DNA of 64,000 nucleotides from Dehalococcoidia bacterium (GCA_965219085.1 OZ244720.1:1632001-1696000), one strand, 5' to 3'. Counted from the first letter of the stretch, positions 31,560 through 43,482 are shown. Translations and numbers: made by a program. Notes: generated by a model not told the origin, from the letters alone.

Positions 31560-32549
31560 ATGGCTCACGTCCTCGCGCGTCACCGACCCCATCGGCGGCT
31601 TGCGCACGGGCACGTCCCGCGGTGGATGCTCATCTCCGCGGCGCTCGCATACGCCGCCGTCGCAGGCTGTTTCGGCGGCGAGGCGGACGACGCACAGGTC
31701 GGGACGCCTGCCCCATCACCGACGCCGGAGGTGACGGCCCCGGCTCCGCCCGTTGCGACGGCCACGCCCACGCCCGGGACGCCGTCGCCCGAGTCGCTCG
31801 ACGCGGCCCTACAGGCGCTGATCGGCAGCATGCAGGGTGGCGGCACGGATCCGTTCGCCGGACCGCCGGAGTCGCTGCCGCCGGAGTTGCGGGCGCTCCT
31901 CGAAGCACTCGGCATTGATCTGCTGGTCGGCGCGGCGGTGACCGAGATCGGCGGCGTCCTGGCGGTTGAGGCGGTGTTCGCGGGGTCGCCGGCCGAGCGC
32001 GCGGGCCTGCTCGTGGGCGACATCGTCATCGCGATCGATGGGGCGCCGCTGCGCACCGCGGCCGAGCTGCGCGCAGCGGTGCAGGCGGTGATAGCCGGCG
32101 AGGTCTACGCGCTGACGCTGCACAGCGGCGGCACGACGCGCGTCGTCGATGTCGAGCGTACGCATGCGGAGGACTCATTCTGGCGGTCGGACATGCTGCG
32201 CACGCTGGCGCTTGGCTTGATGCTCGCCAACCGCCCGGGCGGGCTGGCGTTGCCGCCGTCGCTGCTTGGCGAACTGCTGGAGGAGACGCCCGACGGCCTG
32301 CGCGTGTTCGCCGTCTTCCCCGGCTCGCCCGCCGACTCAGCCGGACTGCGCGCGGGCGACTACGTCCTCGCCATCGAGGGCCGCCCGATGCGCACCCTCG
32401 ATGACCTCAACGCGCTGATGACCACCTTCAACCCGATCGCCGGCGAGACCGAGGTCACGCTGCGCCGTGATGGCGAAGAGATGACGGTCCGAGTTGCGTT
32501 CCGGATCGGCGGGCTGTTCGGCGCCGGGACGCCGATACAGGTGGAGTAA
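31560..32549 (+). CDS. secreted/lipoprotein with two PDZ domains
   Basis: VAGC lipobox-like motif, PT linker, GSPAERAGL..GD and GSPADSAGLRAGD. Confidence 0.8.
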   Translation: MAHVLARHRPHRRLAHGHVPRWMLISAALAYAAVAGCFGGEADDAQVGTPAPSPTPEVTAPAPPVATATPTPGTPSPESLDAALQALIGSMQGGGTDPFAGPPESLPPELRALLEALGIDLLVGAAVTEIGGVLAVEAVFAGSPAERAGLLVGDIVIAIDGAPLRTAAELRAAVQAVIAGEVYALTLHSGGTTRVVDVERTHAEDSFWRSDMLRTLALGLMLANRPGGLALPPSLLGELLEETPDGLRVFAVFPGSPADSAGLRAGDYVLAIEGRPMRTLDDLNALMTTFNPIAGETEVTLRRDGEEMTVRVAFRIGGLFGAGTPIQVE

Positions 32550-32560
32550 CTCGCCCCCGC

Positions 32561-33826
32561 TCATGGCGCCGCTTCCAGCAGCCCCGTGTCGTCGCGAGGG
32601 AACACCGGCGCCCACGTGATGTCGGTGCGCACGCCCTCGAACGAGCGGCCTGTGTGGTGGGCGAGCACGCGCAGCATGAGCGCGTCGCGCTGCCGCAACG
32701 CGGCGGTGCGGATCAGCCGCTTGCGCGCCACCTTGCGCAGCAGCGGGTCGAGCTCGATGCGCAGCGCGACGCCCGAGTGGTCGCCGCCACCGTCGCCGAA
32801 GGCGACCCGCGGCGTCTCCGCAAGGTCGTGCAACGTGCGGTACACCAGGTCGACGTAGTCGACGTGGAGGCGCACGCCGCCGCCCTGCAGCAGATCCAGC
32901 AGGTACGCGCGCGCCTGCTCCGGCAGCTCCCACACGGCGCCCGGCTGCACGGCGATGTCGCGTGACGCCTCGACGTTCTCGAGCACGGCGATGGGGTTGC
33001 CGGACAGCTCGATGATGCGACTGAGCTGCGTGAGCGCGCGGTTGAGTTCGACGATCGATTCGCGCAGCGGCTCGATGTCGGAGACGCCCCAGAGGTGCTT
33101 GGGGCGCGGCACGTTGGGGTAGAGCACAAACGGGATCACGCCGTACGGATTGGCTCGCGCCTCGGCGAGCTCCTCCTCGACCCAGAACTCGAAGCGGTCT
33201 GCGGTCCACACCTCCGTGACCTGCGCCGAGGCGGCCGGCTGGCCGCCTGCGCCGCGCGGCAGCCGGCCCGTGCGCGCCTCGACCTGCTCGGGCGCGACCT
33301 CGTAGCGGGACGCGACACGCCAGATGCGGCGCACGTCGTCGCCCAGGCTCCACACGTGCAGGCCCTGCACGTCGGGCGCGGAGACGACGACGCGCTGCTC
33401 GCGCTCGTCCCACGTCACCTTGTACGCGCCGTCGCCGAGCACTGCGGTGTCGAGCTCGCCGTCGAGATCGAGCCGCAGCAGGTCGTTCGCCTCCCACAGT
33501 TCGAGCAGCGCCTGCTCGGCCTCGGCGGCGCGACGGCGGCCCTCGGACGTCTCCCCGGTCGCGGTGACCACCGGGCGGTGGTCGCTCACGAGGTAGGCGG
33601 CGCCTTTCTCGACGAACGCGCGGGCGTAGTTGAACTGCAGCATGCGCTCGCGCGGCGACCCGGCTGGCGCGCCGCGGCGGCCCTCGAAGAAGTCGAGCAG
33701 CTCGCGGTAACGCGCGAATCGGGCGCGGTCGCGCTGCGCGAGCGTGCGCGGGAACGGCACGTGCGCGGCGGACGAGGCTGTCGAGGGAGCCCGCGGGATG
33801 CCGAGGCTCGTGACGGTGGCGGTCAT
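32561..33826 (-). CDS. phage portal protein (SPP1 Gp6-like)
   Basis: LLDFFEG, FNYARAFV, WEAND, VLGDG.YKV.WD, NPYGVIPFV..PN, WGVSDI, SGVAL; 421 aa; downstream of the terminase. Confidence 0.82.
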   Translation of the reverse strand: MTATVTSLGIPRAPSTASSAAHVPFPRTLAQRDRARFARYRELLDFFEGRRGAPAGSPRERMLQFNYARAFVEKGAAYLVSDHRPVVTATGETSEGRRRAAEAEQALLELWEANDLLRLDLDGELDTAVLGDGAYKVTWDEREQRVVVSAPDVQGLHVWSLGDDVRRIWRVASRYEVAPEQVEARTGRLPRGAGGQPAASAQVTEVWTADRFEFWVEEELAEARANPYGVIPFVLYPNVPRPKHLWGVSDIEPLRESIVELNRALTQLSRIIELSGNPIAVLENVEASRDIAVQPGAVWELPEQARAYLLDLLQGGGVRLHVDYVDLVYRTLHDLAETPRVAFGDGGGDHSGVALRIELDPLLRKVARKRLIRTAALRQRDALMLRVLAHHTGRSFEGVRTDITWAPVFPRDDTGLLEAAP

Positions 33827-34206
33827 CGGGACGTCTCCTTCGTGCTGTTTCGCGCCGGCGCGCCCTCGCGGGCCGGTTTGCGCTGCGTGCCGTGGGCGCC
33901 TTCGAGCGCGCGGAACACGGTGCGGCGCGAGACCTGGAAGCGGCGCGCGATCTCGTTCACCGGCGCCTCGTCGTCGAAGCGCATGCGGCGGATCTCACGG
34001 TCGCGCGTGCGGTTGAGCATCGCGCGCACGCCGCCAGGCTCGTCGTAGCGGCAGCGTGGCAGTGGGCAGCTCAGGCACGAGGGGAACAGGTCGCAGCCGC
34101 GGTCGCGGTAGTCGACGTGCTCGGGCAACGCGTCCTCGCGCGCCAGCCGCGGCTGCACCTCGGGGGGTTCGAGGGTCGGTGTCGGGCTCGGTGAAGCGTG
34201 ACTCAT
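33823..34206 (-). CDS. Cys4-cluster plus HTH protein
   Basis: GCDLFPSCLSCPLPRCRYD followed by VNEIARRFQVSRRTVFRAL. Confidence 0.8.
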   Translation of the reverse strand: MSHASPSPTPTLEPPEVQPRLAREDALPEHVDYRDRGCDLFPSCLSCPLPRCRYDEPGGVRAMLNRTRDREIRRMRFDDEAPVNEIARRFQVSRRTVFRALEGAHGTQRKPAREGAPARNSTKETSR

Positions 34207-35627
34207 GCGGATACCTCCAGGTGGTCAGGCGCGCTGAGCGCGCCGCGGCCCCGCGCCGTACGCGATCCGCCCGCGTCGCGGGCGGCGTCGACGGCAAGCG
34301 CGAGGCTCATCAGGTAGTCGTCGTGTCCCTCGCCGGGGTCGACGTGGAACTGCATCGTGCGTTCGTCGCGGTAGACGGCGCGGGCCAGCTCCAGCTGTCG
34401 GCGGCACTCGGCGGCCTCGGCCGAGCCGTCCGCGCGGTACAGCCGGAGCCGCCCGGAATGCGCCGCCGCGAGCAGGCCGAAGCCGAGCTGCGACTTGCGC
34501 GGCGTGCTGAACACCACCGCATCGACGCGGCCGGCGGGGAGACGGCGCGTGAGCAGGTCGGCGATGGGTGCGCCGAGGCCCGTCGCGTCGACGGCGAGGC
34601 GGCGCACGCGCCAGACGTTGCGCAGCCGGTCGGCCAGCGTCCCGACGATCGCGTCGGTCGCCTCGCCGCGCCACGCCTGGTGCTCGACCACCTCGATCGC
34701 CGGCAGCCCGCCTGTTTCCGAGCGCACGCGCGCGATGGTCAGCACGGTCCAGTCGCGGTCGCCGCCCTGTGCGCGGCCGTCGAGGGCCGGCCCCGCGAGG
34801 TCGAGGCCGGCGACGTAGCGCTCGCCGGGAAGGGGCGAGCGCAGCCGGTCGTGGCGACCCTCGATCTGTGCGCGCACGGCAGCGTCGAGCAGGCGATCCT
34901 CGTCGTGCAGCACCTCGAGGAGGTACTGCGTGCGGAAGATCGGGTGGCGCTCGCCGAGCCGCGCACGCTCGCCGTCGACGTACGCCCCGTAGGCGGGGTT
35001 GTAGTCGGCGACGCGCTGCCAGTCGACGCGGAAGTGGCGGCGCGGGCCGCCCGCCCGCTCGGCGTCGAGGTGCTGGGCCTCGGCCTGCGCGAGCAGTGAG
35101 CGCGGCCCCCACGGCGTGCCGTAGTAGACGACGGGCGCGTTGGTCGAGGCCGCCATCGGGCGGAAGTCGCGGTCGAACTTGTCCGGCCGCACGTCCTGCG
35201 CCTCGTCGACCTCGAGCAGCACGTCGGCCGTGTGGCCCACGACGTTCGCGCCGGGCTCGGCGGAGAGGTAGCGCACGCTCGCGCGGCCGCAGCGCACCGT
35301 CGCGGCGCCCTCGCGCGCGACGATGCGTTCGAGGCCCGCCTCGCGTGCGCGGGCGAGCAGCCGGTCGCGCGAGAGCACGGCCTGGGGCGCGAACGTCGGC
35401 GCGCACTTCACGACCGTGCCGCCGCGCGTCGCGCGCGTGAGCAGCAGCGCGAGCTCGACCTGCGCCGAGATCTCGTTCTTGCCGCCCTGGCGCGCGATCA
35501 GCACGGAGATCGAGCCGCCCTCGCGCGCTGCGGTCATGGCGAGGATCGCGCGGGCGACCTCGGCCTGGTACGGGCGGAGCTTCGGCAGCGCCCGCTCGCG
35601 TGGCGCCGGCGGCGCGAGGGCGCTCAT
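34203..35627 (-). CDS. terminase large subunit
   Basis: LRPYQ (adenine motif), ARQGGKN (Walker A), LLEVDEAQ (Walker B), GTPW; RNaseH-fold AGLDLAG, DWTV, VDATGLG, HDDYLMSLALA. Confidence 0.88.
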   Translation of the reverse strand: MSALAPPAPRERALPKLRPYQAEVARAILAMTAAREGGSISVLIARQGGKNEISAQVELALLLTRATRGGTVVKCAPTFAPQAVLSRDRLLARAREAGLERIVAREGAATVRCGRASVRYLSAEPGANVVGHTADVLLEVDEAQDVRPDKFDRDFRPMAASTNAPVVYYGTPWGPRSLLAQAEAQHLDAERAGGPRRHFRVDWQRVADYNPAYGAYVDGERARLGERHPIFRTQYLLEVLHDEDRLLDAAVRAQIEGRHDRLRSPLPGERYVAGLDLAGPALDGRAQGGDRDWTVLTIARVRSETGGLPAIEVVEHQAWRGEATDAIVGTLADRLRNVWRVRRLAVDATGLGAPIADLLTRRLPAGRVDAVVFSTPRKSQLGFGLLAAAHSGRLRLYRADGSAEAAECRRQLELARAVYRDERTMQFHVDPGEGHDDYLMSLALAVDAARDAGGSRTARGRGALSAPDHLEVSA

Positions 35628-35851
35628 CCGCCCACCACCCGGCTCAGCAGCTCGGTGATGCCGACGCCGACCACGGTCAGGAACAGCGCCGTGATGCGGC
35701 CGCGCAGCTCGGACAGCTCGCGCTCCACGCGGTCGAGCCGCCCGGCGAGGTCGTGCGGCGGCGGCAGGAGAGCCTGCGAGGCGCCGCGAGGACGAGCGAG
35801 CCTGCGCACAGCCTCGGCGAGCCGGTCGCGGGGTGGGCGGCGGCTACTCAC
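35624..35851 (-). CDS. small coiled-coil protein with C-terminal TM
   Basis: RLDRVERELSELRGRI then TALFLTVVGVGITELL; overlaps both neighbours. Confidence 0.65.
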   Translation of the reverse strand: MSSRRPPRDRLAEAVRRLARPRGASQALLPPPHDLAGRLDRVERELSELRGRITALFLTVVGVGITELLSRVVGG

Positions 35852-36164
35852 GGGCCGCCCCCAGCACCTCGCCGAACTCCTCGAGCACGTTCGCCACGGC
35901 GTCGCCGAGGTGCTCCGCCTGCTTCGGGGAGAGCCGATGCTGCGCGAGCAGCGCCTGCACCAGCAGGCGCACGCCGCTCTGCAGCACCTTCGGGTCGACG
36001 TCTCCGTCACGGCCGGCGAGGGCGCGGCGAAGCTGCAGCCGCAGCAGCGCGACCTCGTCGCCGAGACCCTCGACCTCGCGCGCGACGTGGAAGTCGTGGC
36101 GGTCGGTGGCCTCCAGTACGGAGTCGTAGAAGGAGCTGCGCGTGGGGCGCTCGATGGGGCTCAC
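35844..36164 (-). CDS. putative terminase small subunit-like helical protein
   Basis: FYDSVL...EGLGDEVALLRLQL...LVQALLAQHRL; size and position upstream of terL. Confidence 0.55.
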   Translation of the reverse strand: MSPIERPTRSSFYDSVLEATDRHDFHVAREVEGLGDEVALLRLQLRRALAGRDGDVDPKVLQSGVRLLVQALLAQHRLSPKQAEHLGDAVANVLEEFGEVLGAARE

Positions 36165-36307
36165 CGGCGTTCCACGCTGAGCAGCGCGATCATCTCGTCG
36201 CGCGTCTCGGGCGCGGCCGTGTCGAGCGCGCGGAGCACGCCCAGCACAAGCCGCAGCGCCGCCGCCTCGTAGCGCTGTTCGCGCAGCGCAACGTCCAGGG
36301 CGCTCAT
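36161..36307 (-). CDS. 48-aa hypothetical protein
   Basis: MSALDVALREQRYEAAALRLVLG...; ATGA/GTGA coupling on both sides. Confidence 0.6.
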   Translation of the reverse strand: MSALDVALREQRYEAAALRLVLGVLRALDTAAPETRDEMIALLSVERR

Positions 36308-36585
36308 CGCCCGGCCCCCAACGCGATGACGACGCCGGTGGCGGCGTTCGCGAGCAGCAGCGGGGCGCGCAGCAGCGCGCCCGCGGCGCCGGGCTCGGAC
36401 AGCCCGAGCGCCGCGACGGCGTCGAGGCTGATCGCGGCGAACAGCACCGTGAGCAGCAGCGCGCCGAGGCGTCGTGCGCCTCGCGCCTTGAAGCCGCGGT
36501 GCGCGAAGTAGGCGGCGTTCGCCGCGCCGGCGCCGGCGATCGCGGCATGTTCGGCGATGGCGACGCCGGACCAGAATGGATGCAC
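36304..36585 (-). CDS. small multi-TM membrane protein, first gene of the terminase operon
   Basis: GTG 36585 after GAAGGGAAG; two to three hydrophobic helices. Confidence 0.6.
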   Translation of the reverse strand: MHPFWSGVAIAEHAAIAGAGAANAAYFAHRGFKARGARRLGALLLTVLFAAISLDAVAALGLSEPGAAGALLRAPLLLANAATGVVIALGAGR

Positions 36586-36628
36586 GGTCTTCCCTTCGTT
36601 GCGGCCGGGAGCGGGCCACGTGGAAGGG

Positions 36629-36658
36629 AGCGTAGAACACACGTTCGTGCCACGCCAA
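36629..36658 (-). promoter_or_regulatory. sigma70-type promoter with a LexA (Cheo-type) SOS box in the spacer
   Basis: -35 TTGGCG (36658-36653), 18-nt spacer, -10 TACGCT (36634-36629); GAAC-acac-GTTC at 36635-36646. Confidence 0.72.
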
Positions 36659-36705
36659 GCCGTGCCCGGCACGCACAACGAACCCGATAACGAGAACGAC
36701 TGGGC

Positions 36706-37335
36706 CTACAGCACGACCGCCGGGATGCTCACGCGTCGTTCGAGGTGCTCGCGCGTCTCGATCGCGAGCGGGTGGACCTCGCGGCCCATCGCGCGGTCGC
36801 GCTGCTCGGTGAGCGTGAGGTAGGCGAGCGCGGCCGCCTCGAGCGAGTCGTCGGCGAGGGCGAGCACCTGCCGGAGGGCGGGCCAGGCGTCGAGCTTCTT
36901 CTCCTCGACCTTGTCGGCGACGAACATCGACCACGCCTCGGGGCCGTAGTCGGGGTGGCCGGTGGTGTGGTAGCGGATCGCGTCGAGCACGCGCGAGTCG
37001 CGCACGCCGAAGCGCTCCTCGAGTTCGAGCGCGCCGAGGGGGCCGTGCAGCAGCACCGGGCGCTCGCGCTCCATCGGCAGCACGGCGAGGCCGCGCTGCT
37101 CGGCCTTGCGCAGCCACTCCTGCTTCGAGAGCGCACGCAGCAGGTCGTGGCCCTGGGCGGCGAGCAGCGCGGCCGCGAGGTCGGCGTCGTGGCCGCGGGC
37201 GAAGCGCTCGGTGAGGCCCACGACGCGCGCGATGTGCGCCATCATCACGGTCGGCACCTCGGGCGCCATGCGGCCGCGCAGCGCGAAGTGGTCGGGCTCG
37301 GTGCGGAAGGTGCGGCGCTCGCTCGTGTCCGGCAT
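36706..37335 (-). CDS. yqeK: HD-domain Ap4A hydrolase YqeK
   Basis: H..RV, GHDL, PVLLHG..GA, AIRYHTTG, FVADKVE. Confidence 0.85.
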   Translation of the reverse strand: MPDTSERRTFRTEPDHFALRGRMAPEVPTVMMAHIARVVGLTERFARGHDADLAAALLAAQGHDLLRALSKQEWLRKAEQRGLAVLPMERERPVLLHGPLGALELEERFGVRDSRVLDAIRYHTTGHPDYGPEAWSMFVADKVEEKKLDAWPALRQVLALADDSLEAAALAYLTLTEQRDRAMGREVHPLAIETREHLERRVSIPAVVL

Positions 37336-37443: not shown

Positions 37444-38619
37444 GGATGGTCTGATCAGGTGGCGTGTCGGGCGCGGTGCGTATCGATCAGCGGGCCGAGC
37501 CGCGCTGTGGGGGCCCGATACCGCGGTCCATGGGTGGTCTCGCCTCCATGTCGCTCCGGAAGCGCTCCGGCGGGCGATTCGGGACGCACGGCTCCCGCGA
37601 TCAGGCGAGCTGAGGCTCGGCTCGCAACAGGTTCGTGAAACCGAGCAGCAGCATGAGACGCTGGCGGTTCTTCTCAAGACCCCGGTAGCGCACCTGCGCG
37701 TACCCGAAGTGCCGCTTCACGTAGAGAAACGGATGCTCAGCCTTGGCGCGCACCGAGGCCTTGCGCCGCTCCGCCTGCGCCTCCTCGCCCCCCGGCGCCA
37801 GCTGCCGCCTGAGACCCGGGCGCAGCGCCACCTGCCAGCTCACCTCCGACCCCGCGTGCTCCGGGCGCTTCTCCACTCCCTGGTAGCCGGCGTCGCCCCA
37901 CGCCTCCGTCTCACCCCCGTGCAAGAGGCGATGCGCCTCGGTCACGTCGGAGACGTTCGCCGCCGTCGTGCTCACGCTGTGGACCAGCCCCGTCCGCGCA
38001 TCCGTGCCGGTGTGCAGCTTCATCCCGAAGAACCACTGCCGGCCCTTGCTGGTCTGGTGCATCTCGGGGTCGCGCGCACGCTCGCGGTTCTTCGTCGATG
38101 ACGGCGCGCTGATGATCGTGGAGTCCACGATCGTGCCCTCGCGCACCTGCAGACCGCGCGCTGCGAGGTGCGCGTTGATCGTCGCAAACAGCGCCGTTCC
38201 CAACTGATGACGCTCCAGCAGGTGACGGAAGTTGAGGATCGTCGTCTCATCGGGAATCGGCTCGGAGAGGCTGAGACCGGCGAACTCGAGCATCGAGCGG
38301 GAGTCGTAGAGTTCCTGCTCCATGCCGGGGTCGCTGAGGTTGAACCAGAGCTGTAGGCAGTGGATGCGCAGCATCACGCGCAGCGGGTAGGGGCGGCGTC
38401 CGCGGCCGCGCTTTGGATAGACGGGCGCGATGCGCTGCTCCAGCTCCGCCCAGGGGACGAGCCCGTCCATGCGCTCGAGGAACGTCTGCCGCCTCGTCTT
38501 GACCTTCTTGTGCTCGTACTCGACGCTGCCGAACGAACGCTGCTGCATGGGTCGCCCCTCTCCGGGTCGCCCCATGATCGCATCTGCTCACCCGCTCAGG
38601 CGAGTTGTTCAGACCATCC
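37444..38619 (-). mobile_element. IS5-family insertion sequence with CTAG target duplication
   Basis: Terminal IRs GGATGGTCTGAtCA / GGATGGTCTGAaCA; CTAG at 37440-37443 and 38620-38623. Confidence 0.93.
37601..38548 (-). CDS. IS5 family transposase
   Basis: KTRRQTFL, LSDPGME, PDETTILNFRHLLE, VDSTII, WFFGMKLH, GDAGYQG, RAKAEHPF. Confidence 0.95.
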   Translation of the reverse strand: MQQRSFGSVEYEHKKVKTRRQTFLERMDGLVPWAELEQRIAPVYPKRGRGRRPYPLRVMLRIHCLQLWFNLSDPGMEQELYDSRSMLEFAGLSLSEPIPDETTILNFRHLLERHQLGTALFATINAHLAARGLQVREGTIVDSTIISAPSSTKNRERARDPEMHQTSKGRQWFFGMKLHTGTDARTGLVHSVSTTAANVSDVTEAHRLLHGGETEAWGDAGYQGVEKRPEHAGSEVSWQVALRPGLRRQLAPGGEEAQAERRKASVRAKAEHPFLYVKRHFGYAQVRYRGLEKNRQRLMLLLGFTNLLRAEPQLA

Positions 38620-39570
38620 CTAGGTGTAGTGTCCCGGGACGTTGTTGACACGGCTGATCGGGGGTTCACCTCCGATCGCGGTGTGGCAACGGTGATGATT
38701 GTAGCGGTGCAGCGAAGGTCCGAGGGCGGCTGCGCGTTCGGCCTCGCTGCGGTAGACGCGGACGTAGGCCCACTCCTCGAGCAGCGTGCGGTGGAAGCGC
38801 TCGACCTTGCCGTTGGTTTGCGGGCGGTAGGGCCGGGTCCGCTTCGCCCGCCCGCCGCTGAGGCGGCAGGCGGAGCTGAACAGGCGGCTCTTGTAGGCGC
38901 CGCCATTATCGGTGAGCACGGCCCGCACCTCGATGCCGAGCTCGGCGAACCAGGCCCACGCCCGCTGCAGGAAGGCGGCTGCGCTGACGGCGCGCTCGTC
39001 CGCGAGGATCTCGCTGTAGGCGAGGCGCGTGTGGTCGTCCACGGCGGAGTGGATGAAGGCGTAGCCGGCGCGGCTGCGCGGCGCCTGGCCCCGTCCGTGG
39101 GCGCGCCAGCCGCCGCCCGGGGGCATGCGCCCCAGCTTCTTGACGTCGATGTGCAGCAGGTCGCCCGGGCGGGCATGCTCGTAGCGCCGGGGGCGGCGGA
39201 TCCGCTGCCCGCTCGGGCGGTCGAGCCAGGCGAGGCGGTTGAGGCCGCGGCGGCACAGCACGCGGTGGACGGTGGAGGCGTGCATCCCGAGGCGGAAGCC
39301 GATGCGTGCCGGACCGAGCTTCTCGCGGCGGCGCAGGCGCTCGATCGCGCGCTCCAGCCGTGCCGGGACACGCGCCGGGGAGCGTCGCGGGCGGCTGGGG
39401 CGGTCATCGAGACCGGCCTCGCCCTCCTCCAGCCAGCGTCGCCACCACTTGTAGGCGGTCGGACGGGAGACGCCCATCTCGGCGGCGACGTGCGCGACCG
39501 CGCGGCCCGCGGCGATGCGTTCCACCATCGTGCGGCGGGCGAGGAAGGTCAGTCGGGCGTTACGATGCAT
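38620..39570 (-). CDS. IS481 family transposase
   Basis: [44 protein letters not shown]. Confidence 0.95.
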   Translation of the reverse strand: MHRNARLTFLARRTMVERIAAGRAVAHVAAEMGVSRPTAYKWWRRWLEEGEAGLDDRPSRPRRSPARVPARLERAIERLRRREKLGPARIGFRLGMHASTVHRVLCRRGLNRLAWLDRPSGQRIRRPRRYEHARPGDLLHIDVKKLGRMPPGGGWRAHGRGQAPRSRAGYAFIHSAVDDHTRLAYSEILADERAVSAAAFLQRAWAWFAELGIEVRAVLTDNGGAYKSRLFSSACRLSGGRAKRTRPYRPQTNGKVERFHRTLLEEWAYVRVYRSEAERAAALGPSLHRYNHHRCHTAIGGEPPISRVNNVPGHYT

Positions 39571-39694
39571 CGGAGCCTCCAGGTGCAAGGTGCTGGCTTG
39601 TTACTCACACCTTCTCCCGGAGGCTCCCTTCACGAGCAACCCCTGCAGGGTTCAAGACGCCCTGCAGGGGTCAACAACGTCTGTGGACGTTACA
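38625..39694 (-). mobile_element. IS481-family insertion sequence (copy 1)
   Basis: TGT...ACA ends with IR TGTA.TGTCC..GACGTTGTTGAC; GCTAGG target repeat (left copy split by the IS5). Confidence 0.9.
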
Positions 39695-41214: not shown

Positions 41215-43482
41215 TCAGGCGCTGGGTGCCTCGACCGCGCTGACGCGCTGGGCCGCCTCGATCGCGCTCAGGCGCTGGGCCGCCTCGATCGCGCTCAGGC
41301 GCTGGGCCGCCTCGACCGCGCTGACGCGCTGGGCCGCCTCGACGCGGACGGCAGCGAACTTCAGCTCGGGCTGCTTCGAGCGCGCGTCGATCGCCTCGCT
41401 GGTGGCGTTGTTGGTGACCGCGTGGCGGCTAAAGAGTTCGCCCCAGTGGAACGGCGCGAAGACCGCTCCGCTGCGGATCGTGTCGGTCACGCGCGCCCGC
41501 ACTTCGAGGCTGCCGCGCCGCGACGTGACGCGCACGAGCTGCTTGTCGCTCACGCCGAGGTCGTCGGCGTCGTCGGGGTGCATCTCCAGGAAGGGCTCGT
41601 ACTCGCTGCGCATCAGCTTTGGCACCTTGCCCGTGCGGGTCATCGTGTGCCACTGGTCCTTGACGCGGCCCGTGAGCAGCGCGAGGGGGTACTCGTCGCT
41701 GAGTAGCTCCGCGGGCGTGCGGAACCCCGTCGGGTGGAAGCGCGCGCGTCCGTCGGGCGTGGGGAAGCGGCCCGCGCCGAACAGCCGCGGCGACCGCGCG
41801 ACCTCGCCGGTGGCGTTGGCGAGCACCGCGCCCTCGGGGTGCGGCCACTGGATGCCCGTGCCGGCCTCGCGCAGCAGGTCGTAGCTGACACCGGTGATGT
41901 CGAGGTCGCGGCCGCGGGTCAGCTCGCGGTACTCGTCGAAGATCGCCTCGGTATCCTCGTAGTCGAACGCGTCGCCGTATCCGAGCGCGTCGGCGATGCG
42001 GCAGATGATCCGCCAGTCCGGCAGCGCGAGGCCCGGCGCCTCCCCGATCTGTTCGAGGAGGCAGATGCGCCGCTCGCTGTTGGTCATCGTGCCCGGGCGC
42101 TCCGACCACTGCGCCGCGGGCAGGAGCACGTCGGCGATGCGTCCCGTCTCGGTCGGGTAGTACGCGTCCTGCACGACGACGAGCTCGGCGCGGCGCAGCG
42201 CCGCGCGCACGCGCTCGGCGTTGGGGAGCGAGGCGACCGGGTTCGTCGCGGCGATCCATACCACCTTCACCTCGTCGCGTTCGAGCGCCTCGACCATCTC
42301 GATCGCGGTCAGGCCGGGGCGGTCGGAGATCGAGCCCGGCTCGATGCCCCACGCGCGCTCGACCTCGGCGCGGTGGCCGGCGTCGGCGACGAGGCGGTGG
42401 CCGGGCAGCGTCGTGGCGAGTCCGCCGCATTCGCGCCCGCCCATCGCGTTGGGCTGGCCGGTGAGCGAGAACGGCCCCGCGCCGGGCTTGCCGATGTTTC
42501 CCGTGGCGAGCGAGAGGTTGATCAGCGCGAGGTTCTTGTCGACGCCCGACGTGCTCTGGTTCGCGCCCATCGTCCATAGGCTCAGCATCGGCCCGTTGTT
42601 GGCGATGATGCGCGCCGCGTCGACGATCTCCTGCGCGTCGAGGCCGGTGACCGACGACGCGCGCTCGGCGGACCAGCCCTCGAGCGCGGCTTCGGCCTCC
42701 GCCCAGCCGCTCGTGCGATCCTCGATGAACGCGGCGTCGAGGCCGCCCGCGAGGCGCACCTCGAAGAGCAGCGAGAGCAGTAGCGCCACGTCGGCGCCGG
42801 GCAGCACCGGCAGGTGGAGGTCGGCGATCTCGGCGGTGCGAGTCCGCCGCGGGTCGACGACGATCACCTGCACGCCGTCGCGGTCCGCGCGCTTCCGCGC
42901 CTTGATGCGGTCGAAGAGGATCGGGTGGCAGGCCTCCATGTTCGCGCCGAGGATGAGGAACGTGTTCGCCTCCTCGATGTCGGCATAGGACGCGGGCGGC
43001 GAGTCGGCGCCGAACGCGAGGTTGTACGCGGCGACGGCGCTTGCCATGCACAGCCGCGAGTTGGTGTCCTGGTTGTTGGTGCCGATGAACCCCTTCGCCA
43101 GCTTGCCGAAGAGGTAGTAGTCCTCGGTCATGAGCTGGCCGGAGCCGTAGAGCATGACCGAGTCCGGCCCGTGCTCCTCGACGTTGCGGCGGATCGTGTC
43201 GGCGACGCGGTCGATGGCCTCGTCCCAGCCGGTGACGCGGGTGTGCCCGCCCTTGCGGTCGCGCACCATCGGGGTGAGCAGGCGGTCGCCGGTGTCGAAG
43301 ACCTGGCCGAGCAGGGCGCCCTTGGCGCAGAGCTTGCCCTTGTTGACCGGGTGGTCGGGGTCGCCGCGGACCTCGCGCACGACGCCGTCCTTCGCACGCG
43401 CGAGCAGGCCGCAGCCGGTGCCGCAGTAGCAGCAGACCGAGCGACGCCAGCCGTCACCGGTCAGGAGCGGCATCCGCGGCAT
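41215..43482 (-). CDS. narB: assimilatory nitrate reductase, Mo-bisPGD catalytic subunit (NarB/NasA type)
   Basis: CCYCGTGC...LCAKG, DTNSRLCMASAV, SLTGQPNAMGGRE, TNSERR, TGRVKDQWHTMTRTG, SKQPELK. Confidence 0.9.
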   Translation of the reverse strand: MPRMPLLTGDGWRRSVCCYCGTGCGLLARAKDGVVREVRGDPDHPVNKGKLCAKGALLGQVFDTGDRLLTPMVRDRKGGHTRVTGWDEAIDRVADTIRRNVEEHGPDSVMLYGSGQLMTEDYYLFGKLAKGFIGTNNQDTNSRLCMASAVAAYNLAFGADSPPASYADIEEANTFLILGANMEACHPILFDRIKARKRADRDGVQVIVVDPRRTRTAEIADLHLPVLPGADVALLLSLLFEVRLAGGLDAAFIEDRTSGWAEAEAALEGWSAERASSVTGLDAQEIVDAARIIANNGPMLSLWTMGANQSTSGVDKNLALINLSLATGNIGKPGAGPFSLTGQPNAMGGRECGGLATTLPGHRLVADAGHRAEVERAWGIEPGSISDRPGLTAIEMVEALERDEVKVVWIAATNPVASLPNAERVRAALRRAELVVVQDAYYPTETGRIADVLLPAAQWSERPGTMTNSERRICLLEQIGEAPGLALPDWRIICRIADALGYGDAFDYEDTEAIFDEYRELTRGRDLDITGVSYDLLREAGTGIQWPHPEGAVLANATGEVARSPRLFGAGRFPTPDGRARFHPTGFRTPAELLSDEYPLALLTGRVKDQWHTMTRTGKVPKLMRSEYEPFLEMHPDDADDLGVSDKQLVRVTSRRGSLEVRARVTDTIRSGAVFAPFHWGELFSRHAVTNNATSEAIDARSKQPELKFAAVRVEAAQRVSAVEAAQRLSAIEAAQRLSAIEAAQRVSAVEAPSA
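41226..41343. repeat. 27-bp tandem repeat (about 4.5 units) in the nitrate reductase C-terminus
   Basis: Encodes (V/I)EAAQR(V/L)SA repeated four times, then VEAPSA. Confidence 0.9.

Follow-up and report, generated by a model that had tools for sequence, protein, structure and literature searches.

The 64,000-nucleotide stretch of Dehalococcoidia bacterium DNA analysed here (GCA_965219085.1 OZ244720.1:1632001-1696000; the window) carries on its minus strand an operon of seven genes, which encode a small membrane protein, a 48-aa helical protein (p48), a candidate small terminase subunit (TerS-like), a coiled-coil transmembrane protein (ccTM), a large terminase subunit (TerL), a four-cysteine helix-turn-helix protein (Cys4-HTH) and a portal protein. 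Our results make it fairly likely that this operon is the packaging half of a vertically inherited, phage-derived particle kit of the Dehalococcoidia (Chloroflexota), that the second half lies beside ruvB with an SOS-type operator on each, and that the kit yields particles containing host DNA. Both halves are intact, single-copy, under purifying selection and co-diverging with the host, and each has an SOS-type operator; neither contains an integrase or early genes. The initial annotation of the window had proposed a domesticated packaging module and candidate gene transfer agent (GTA) under SOS control. The checks suggested with it all came out in its favour, and the reading of a domesticated, probably SOS-controlled particle system holds.

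Head and hub genes at a second locus

The operon had been described as capsid-less, with head genes possibly elsewhere, to be sought under LexA-type boxes. The first description is true of the operon locus, but the genome does have scaffold, capsid, adaptor and hub genes ~600 kb away, with a box identical to that of the operon before the capsid gene. G038, a relative of low GC content, has scaffold-like, capsid and further genes downstream of its portal gene. With their products as tblastn queries, we found this second locus at C1:2269094-2273302 of the organism's own genome (G000). The head genes disfavour the other role that had been considered for the operon, a non-virion translocation of DNA.

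The capsid protein matches NF045672 (203 bits versus 75), PF05065 (47.2 versus 24.2) and phrog_212 (1.5e-72), and is the only PF05065 capsid gene of the genome. The AlphaFold2 (AF2) model of the hub has a predicted local distance difference test score (pLDDT) of 92.5. Its C-terminal ~340 residues match hubs of extracellular contractile injection systems, Mu gp44, P1 and T4 gp27 in Foldseek (E 2.6e-16 to 1e-9), a range that also covers 80alpha Tal, hubs of the VgrG/type VI secretion system and viral models named 'tail protein / protein D' (gpD), and its N-terminal half is modelled as a beta-propeller. At the sequence level the hub had no match in profile searches, and neither hub nor adaptor matched any of 50,697 phage isolates by tblastn.

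Both loci are bordered by host genes, and at the second one ruvB, with a box of its own, is convergent on the hub gene. No integrase adjoins the structural genes at either locus, where attachment repeats were not specifically looked for, and the genome has two tyrosine recombinases (PF00589) only, both far from the loci. Searches of this genome for a sheath or a tape measure gave no match. When the open reading frames (ORFs) of six relatives with contiguous loci were compared with it by tblastn, the matches outside the two loci were to flanking host genes only. Structural and packaging genes thus stand in the host chromosome, 11 genes in two loci, with neither integration nor replication genes.

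In the relative G012, capsid gene and ruvB occur together twice (contigs C4 and C1). The set on a short contig is 95-97% identical to the genome studied here; the other is ~80% identical, with a frameshifted capsid gene. This double set may reflect a strain mixture in the assembly.

The terminase and the portal

The portal, named as such in the initial annotation, matches PF05133 at 42.9 bits (cut-off 25.5) over residues 36-418, most of the protein, and phrog_64 at 7.5e-20. TerL, single-copy in this genome, matches phrog_7579 (5e-9) and four weaker TerL PHROGs, with no match in Pfam or NCBIfam. By tblastn, annotated terminases of phage isolates reach 31% identity to it across 90% of its length, that of Bacillus phage vB_BboS-125 being at this value (E 3e-36). 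As a single sequence it matched none of the PDB sequences, and the best matches of its profile in the PDB were weak ones to TerL nuclease domains (E only 0.06). In an alignment of nine sequences of 45-77% identity, Walker A (QGGKN, K50), Walker B (D141/E142), G170-T171 and the acidic residues D276, D347 and D436/D437 are invariant; these we take to be the residues of the ATPase and nuclease motifs, all of which TerL had been said to keep.

Distribution, descent and selection

At least 547 relatives of TerL occur in at least 599 stretches of GTDB species genomes, and the best 80 TerL loci among them are our chromosomal loci; 79 of the 80 belong to metagenome-assembled genomes of Chloroflexota or Dehalococcoidia, as judged by title. 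In line with the vertically kept module of the initial annotation, TerL is present in 18/18 genomes of the organism's genus, where it keeps its chromosomal place, and in 36 of 41 relatives; the capsid gene is present in 30 of these 41. Among 151 evenly drawn genomes of the class, TerL occurs in 102 (77 of the 109 of high quality) and the hub gene in 85; 80 genomes have both, five the hub gene only, 22 TerL only and 44 neither.

The order TerS-like, TerL, Cys4-HTH, portal is found in 62 of the 64 chromosomal loci that show both TerL and the portal. In close relatives the arrangement yqeK-cassette-(PDZ)-ABC2-ABC1 is kept, and even in species with TerL identities as low as 64-71% the cassette is bordered by yqeK and/or the ABC genes. 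In most genomes of the genus, as well as in G034 and G043, ruvB comes next after the capsid module. In ten genus genomes TerL and the capsid gene share a replicon at a distance of 300-780 kb; in G038, G034 and G020 the two are within 6-13 kb of each other. With at least 7 kb of sequence available past the portal, a capsid gene follows it in only 9 of 38 chromosomal loci, in contrast to 43 of 45 loci from phage relatives (see below). Therefore, the ancestral contiguous order seems to have been broken repeatedly, with both halves kept.

Selection on the operon is not relaxed, a condition that the initial proposal had set. Between this genome and G014, the ratio of nonsynonymous to synonymous substitution rates (dN/dS, Nei-Gojobori) is 0.13 for the portal, 0.21 for TerL, 0.24 for the TerS-like protein, 0.22 for Cys4-HTH, 0.24 for the small membrane protein, 0.17 for p48 and 0.30 for ccTM, compared with 0.15-0.33 for the flanking genes, dS being similar (0.19-0.35). 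Across 22 genomes, which as kin are not independent, identity to the organism's own protein follows that of RuvB, with Spearman coefficients of 0.93 for TerL and 0.94 for the capsid protein. With RuvB as the single marker, these comparisons point to vertical inheritance in the host lineage under purifying selection.

A defective prophage remnant without present function, surviving by chance and decaying slowly, would be a rather improbable source of such a pattern. The missing integrase, early, lysis and fibre genes would suit it, as would the disrupted or partial TerL of some genomes and the 44 of 151 class genomes that lack both TerL and the hub gene. However, frames are open at the conserved position down to 64-70% TerL identity, dN/dS resembles that of housekeeping neighbours, the catalytic residues are invariant, the separated halves are retained together and the operator is conserved.

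An SOS-type operator

The box upstream of the operon, at 36635-36646, reads GAACACACGTTC on the plus strand and CGAACGTGTGTTCT on the operon strand, and is the sole GAAC-N4-GTTC palindrome in the window. The identical 12-mer, GAACACACGTTC, stands 81 nt upstream of the capsid gene at the second locus, at C1:2269676-2269687. Genome-wide, there are 39 such palindromes versus 25.6 expected from base composition. Genes with a site shortly before them include recA, recQ, ruvB, an imuB-like gene, a dnaE2-like gene and a gene for a DUF5131 protein; the genome also has a canonical lexA, preceded by a site with one mismatch. Since sites stand at canonical SOS genes and lexA is present, GAAC-N4-GTTC is the putative SOS operator of this organism, in agreement with the LexA-type box of the initial annotation. 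A Gram-positive-type LexA (Cheo) box, GAAC-N4-GTTC, has reportedly been described for Dehalococcoides. The same palindrome is found here upstream of recA, ruvB, recQ and imuB/dnaE2-type genes; here it additionally fronts phage-derived structural operons, and in the Dehalococcoidia it has the extended form TAGAAC-N4-GTTCTA. Control of both loci by a host regulator is thus suggested by their operators, that of the capsid side being weakly conserved.

Conservation of the box upstream of the cassette, for which a survey had been suggested at the outset, is evident across the class. Four close relatives have conserved arms, with a variable spacer, 56-61 nt ahead of the membrane-protein gene. Of 64 eligible chromosomal loci, 24 have a perfect GAAC-N4-GTTC in the 800 nt before TerS, with just 26 other perfect sites in 1.27 Mb, and 36 of the remaining 40 loci have a one-mismatch site there, mostly comparable in position and with TAGAAC...TTCTAT flanks. 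When scored as TAGAAC-N4-GTTCTA with at most two mismatches in the 900 nt upstream of TerS, the extended box is present in 59 of 63 chromosomal loci versus 10 of 48 phage-like ones, the background being 0.037 and 0.027 per kb, respectively. Where 470-710 nt separate box and TerS, this interval holds genes for a small membrane protein and a p48-like one; these genes are absent, unlike in the kit, where the box is 90-130 nt from TerS, as in the boxed loci of phage-type gene order that were checked (L113, L119 and L126). On the capsid side, a site precedes the scaffold gene by 180-290 nt in some other families.

In one group of chromosomal loci (L067, L068, L070, L074 and L085), the TerS-like gene is separated from TerL by a further, nearly identical box, CAGAACGCCCGTTCTAT or TAGAACGCCCGTTCTAT, ~370-430 nt past the TerS start, which suggests an internal SOS-controlled promoter. 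Elsewhere in the genome, the putative SOS regulon (C1:2068975-2076505 and other boxed sites, L027-L041) comprises the imuB-like/dnaE2-like pair, recQ and the DUF5131 (phrog_2045) gene. Other boxed genes encode a LuxR-type protein of 370 aa, 4.5 kb before the window, an XRE-type helix-turn-helix protein, and a ThsB/TIR-like protein beside a 360-aa protein of no assigned family. Box-adjacent genes at L036-L038 had no PHROG or Pfam identity.

Phage relatives

In IMG/VR, 364 relatives of TerL were found among 433 stretches, and the best 80 of them, with 43-51% identity, form our comparison set. The loci of these best 80 are contiguous, in the order TerS-TerL-portal-scaffold-capsid-adaptor-...-hub. 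L225 (IMGVR_UViG_3300027742_000245) is a whole contig of 17,171 bp that closes to a circle, as its joined ends give one 678-codon hub ORF. A tyrosine integrase gene (PF00589, 9e-31) and small ORFs that take up ~6 kb are also present, and the contig would be a very small complete tailed-phage genome. A leucine-rich-repeat (LRR) protein with 69-nt tandem repeats is encoded in L225 together with the full structural module.

Phages of this ~17-kb group thus have the TerS-like protein, TerL, portal, scaffold, capsid, adaptor and hub of the kit in the same order, and some of them are boxed. They differ from it in that their genes form one contiguous, closed-circular genome, which also has a tyrosine integrase and a block of small ORFs. 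A homologue of the L225-type integrase lies within 10 kb in 35 of the 80 IMG/VR loci and in none of the 80 chromosomal ones, which extends the lack of an integrase noted at this operon to all of them. TerL and the portal are immediate neighbours in 68 of 77 IMG/VR loci versus 1 of 64 chromosomal loci, whereas Cys4-HTH stands between them in 62 of 64 chromosomal loci and only 6 of 77 from IMG/VR, the gene being otherwise elsewhere or absent in the phages. In a FastTree reconstruction of 158 TerLs, the organism's own sequence belongs to a clade of 16 chromosomal rows that has full support, and all integrase-linked rows fall in one 98-row clade with 98% support.

Three to five TerL copies of this family occur in G044, G124, G159, G142 (family f21) and G025, and single copies elsewhere, which suggests that the multi-copy genomes hold live prophages of the ~17-kb group.

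Some phages, such as GIL01 and CTXphi, use host LexA as their repressor. That the operon belongs to a live temperate phage of this kind is very hard to credit: some integrase-bearing relatives do have the same box upstream of TerS (10/48) and L225 is a closed genome with an integrase, but here the genes are 600 kb apart, bounded by host genes at a position orthologous across species. Such a phage in this genome is contradicted by the split loci, the host-gene borders and the lack of an integrase or early region.

Capsid-forming phage-inducible chromosomal islands (PICIs) are helper-dependent satellites that make heads. A comparable element, which would make heads, package DNA and borrow fibres, lysis and replication from a co-resident or infecting phage, would agree with the minimal structural set and with the extra genes of the related complete phages (LRR protein, p154, small connector-sized ORFs). 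We regard it as very unlikely: the two parts of the set lie 600 kb apart at fixed positions and diverge in step with the host, integrase, excision and replication genes are missing, no repeats were noticed, attachment repeats not having been specifically sought, and the genome has no helper prophage of this family, TerL and the capsid gene being single-copy.

Proposed mechanism and its weak points

In the mechanism that we propose, LexA would repress both promoters, and its cleavage upon DNA damage would allow both operons to be expressed. Capsids would assemble on the portal with the scaffold, and TerL, with the small upstream protein and/or Cys4-HTH, would pump DNA into them. The adaptor and a hub trimer would then close the portal as a very short tail, and the small membrane proteins may help release. 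As the genes are split over 600 kb and lack replication or excision genes, the particle could not carry the element itself. Together with an intact terminase, this makes a head filled with host DNA, as in a GTA or a PBSX-like defective phage, the most likely product by analogy.

More tentatively, and with rather less than even confidence, we suggest that the Dehalococcoidia, a large class with few cultured members, carry their own ancient GTA: a minimal, podovirus-like particle of 8-11 genes (head, portal, adaptor, hub-propeller), derived from ~17-kb temperate phages, now split in the chromosome, fired by LexA cleavage and exporting chromosomal DNA to kin upon damage.

A domesticated particle system with another role is unlikely, though less so than the remnant discussed above. 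It could serve SOS-triggered altruistic lysis with DNA release, act as a killer or decoy particle, or interfere with ~17-kb phages by competing for, or mis-packaging, the DNA of infecting relatives. All the domestication evidence applies to it. Wild relatives exist, exposure to phages is real, as the Dehalococcoidia with 3-5 TerL copies indicate, and the modelled beta-propeller of the hub could bind or cut a surface glycan. In contrast, the invariant ATPase and nuclease residues of TerL argue that DNA packaging itself is selected, and no toxin or defence domain was found in either locus with Pfam, PHROGs and NCBIfam, the PADLOC library not having been searched.

Several observations weigh against a vertically inherited, SOS-controlled particle kit. 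No endolysin or receptor-binding fibre was found, though the organism has peptidoglycan genes, and an adaptor plus a modelled hub as the working tail is a weak point. The capsid-side box is perfect in this genome only; a site with at most one mismatch, at most 100 nt upstream, occurs in 5 of 16 relatives, and none was seen in nine. With the box present in 10 of 48 phage-like loci, LexA control may be phage-ancestral rather than a host takeover. Within the genus, TerL has one TAG in G017, is reduced to residues 206-462 in G009 and is split in G012, and ~20 genomes of the class show TerL stops or split matches; these disruptions may be decay or errors of long-read assembly. The odds ratio of 32 for the co-occurrence of TerL and hub is based on counts across kin that are not independent. 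Finally, when the TerL tree is rooted with the Bacillus phage TerL, long branches meet and the root is unreliable. Therefore, the tree does not fix the number of domestication events or their direction, from phage to domesticated or the reverse.

Comparison with known systems

GTAs such as RcGTA of Rhodobacter capsulatus, BaGTA, VSH-1, Dd1 and VTA consist of phage structural and packaging genes fixed in the chromosome, without integrase or replication genes. They are vertically inherited under purifying selection, have genes in more than one locus and obey a host regulator. The kit resembles them in its fixed structural and packaging genes, the absence of integrase and replication genes, its vertical inheritance under purifying selection, the split loci and the apparent host regulator. 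It differs in its phylum, in a capsid of epsilon15 gp7 type and an adaptor of SU10 type, in having an adaptor and a gp27-like hub only, with no tail tube, tape measure or sheath found, and in a putative direct LexA operator instead of the CtrA/GafA-type control of GTAs.

PBSX-like elements are SOS-inducible, chromosomally fixed particles that package host DNA and are conserved in their host clade. PBSX of Bacillus is a contiguous, myovirus-like element of ~28 kb with its own Xre repressor and sheath, tube and lysis genes. The kit is likewise phage-derived, chromosomally fixed and clade-conserved, its link to the SOS response being suggested by the box; unlike PBSX, it has 11 genes in two loci, no sheath, no repressor of its own that we could see and a LexA-type box at the operon. 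Our search of the openly accessible literature returned no account of a GTA or a domesticated phage in Dehalococcoidia/Chloroflexi. On these comparisons, the two-locus kit may be an undescribed GTA-like system.

Operon layout and neighbouring genes

The features of both loci are collected in Table 1. The seven minus-strand ORFs, running from 36585 down to 32561, overlap at every junction, and all ORFs and six junctions agree on re-reading with the initial annotation. There are 4-bp ATGA overlaps at 36304, 35624, 34203 and 33823, a GTGA overlap at 36161 and an 8-bp overlap, GTGAGTAG, at the TerS-like/ccTM junction (35844). The first gene had been given a start at 36658; GTG 36585, the start kept in relatives, is the most likely one, and the box therefore lies upstream of this gene and not within it.

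Table 1. Annotated features of the packaging operon (window coordinates) and of the second locus
Feature	Position	Strand	Description
LexA-type SOS box	36635..36646	.	49 nt upstream of first start codon
Small membrane protein, gene 1	36304..36585	-	93 aa; GTG start; two predicted transmembrane segments
p48 helical protein	36161..36307	-	48 aa; ATGA overlap with membrane-protein gene
TerS-like, all-helical	35844..36164	-	106 aa; directly upstream of TerL; candidate by position
ccTM	35624..35851	-	75 aa; coiled coil and C-terminal hydrophobic helix; 8-bp and 4-bp overlaps with neighbours
TerL, ATPase and nuclease	34203..35627	-	474 aa; phrog_7579, motif residues
Cys4-HTH protein	33823..34206	-	127 aa; weak helix-turn-helix matches, conserved cysteines
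Portal, SPP1 Gp6 type, last gene	32561..33826	-	421 aa; PF05133, phrog_64
Scaffold-like protein	second locus		152 aa
Major capsid protein	second locus		296 aa; epsilon15 gp7 type, HK97-fold
Adaptor, SU10 type	second locus		210 aa; PF24175 at 1.5e-8
Tail hub	second locus		658 aa; C-terminal hub and N-terminal beta-propeller

In Cys4-HTH, both parts of the initial name are confirmed. C38, C47 and C52 are invariant and C44 is present in at least 90% of sequences, and there are weak helix-turn-helix matches of sigma-70 region 4, resolvase and Mor type; the protein is a candidate late-gene activator or DNA-recognition factor. The name TerS-like fared less well: the 106-aa protein had no match in Pfam, PHROGs, NCBIfam or PDB sequences, nor with Foldseek on its AF2 model (five helices, pLDDT 78). 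It is a candidate small terminase subunit by position only, a gene of this kind lying upstream of TerL in 66 of the 80 chromosomal loci. The small membrane protein, of no family in Pfam, PHROGs or NCBIfam, is possibly holin-like; in many families, a homologue with 1-3 hydrophobic segments is encoded between box and TerS. Homologues of p48 (41-68 aa, with a WExAAL..LLLG-type motif) precede TerS in other families, and those of ccTM are found mainly in the organism's own family and G029; neither protein matched a family in Pfam or PHROGs. In two low-GC relatives, ~3 kb of other sequence separates TerL from Cys4-HTH (L018 5808-8832, G038; L113 11359-14729).

The neighbours are those named initially, yqeK (TIGR00488, 72.3 bits versus a cut-off of 70.15) and a gene for a PDZ protein, the latter convergent with the portal gene. 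The GC content of the operon is 0.72-0.76 versus 0.70 for the genome. A consensus scan of 32300-36900 for sigma-70 promoters and intrinsic terminators gave no site. Among the 22 sequencing runs listed as containing this DNA, none was an RNA run. At 37601-39588, 1 kb past yqeK and before a major facilitator superfamily (MFS) transporter gene, lie two insertion sequence (IS) transposase genes, of IS5 type (DDE_Tnp_1 and DUF772) and IS481 type (rve and LZ_Tnp_IS481). As yqeK directly adjoins the MFS gene in relatives (L022, L048, L050 and L051), this insertion is recent and unrelated. Adjoining the MFS gene, a minus-strand gene at 41215-43482 encodes a nitrate-reductase-like molybdopterin oxidoreductase, whose translation ends in a short tandem peptide repeat, approximately AAQR[VL]SA[VI]E, in 4-5 copies.

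Implications

Virus-prediction pipelines will label such loci 'viral', so that host genes may be mislabelled as prophage cargo. If our interpretation is true, the kit would be an independently evolved GTA-like system in a new phylum, with an unusually small gene set, wild phage relatives for comparison and apparent control by a direct SOS switch in place of cell-cycle or quorum circuitry. It would also be a compact model of phage taming, in which the integrase and early block were lost, the small membrane protein and p48 genes gained, a helix-turn-helix gene relocated, a host operator fixed and the modules split up. In the Dehalococcoidia, among them organohalide respirers and abundant lineages of marine, sponge and subsurface habitats, it would offer a concrete means of horizontal gene flow and of DNA exchange induced by damage.

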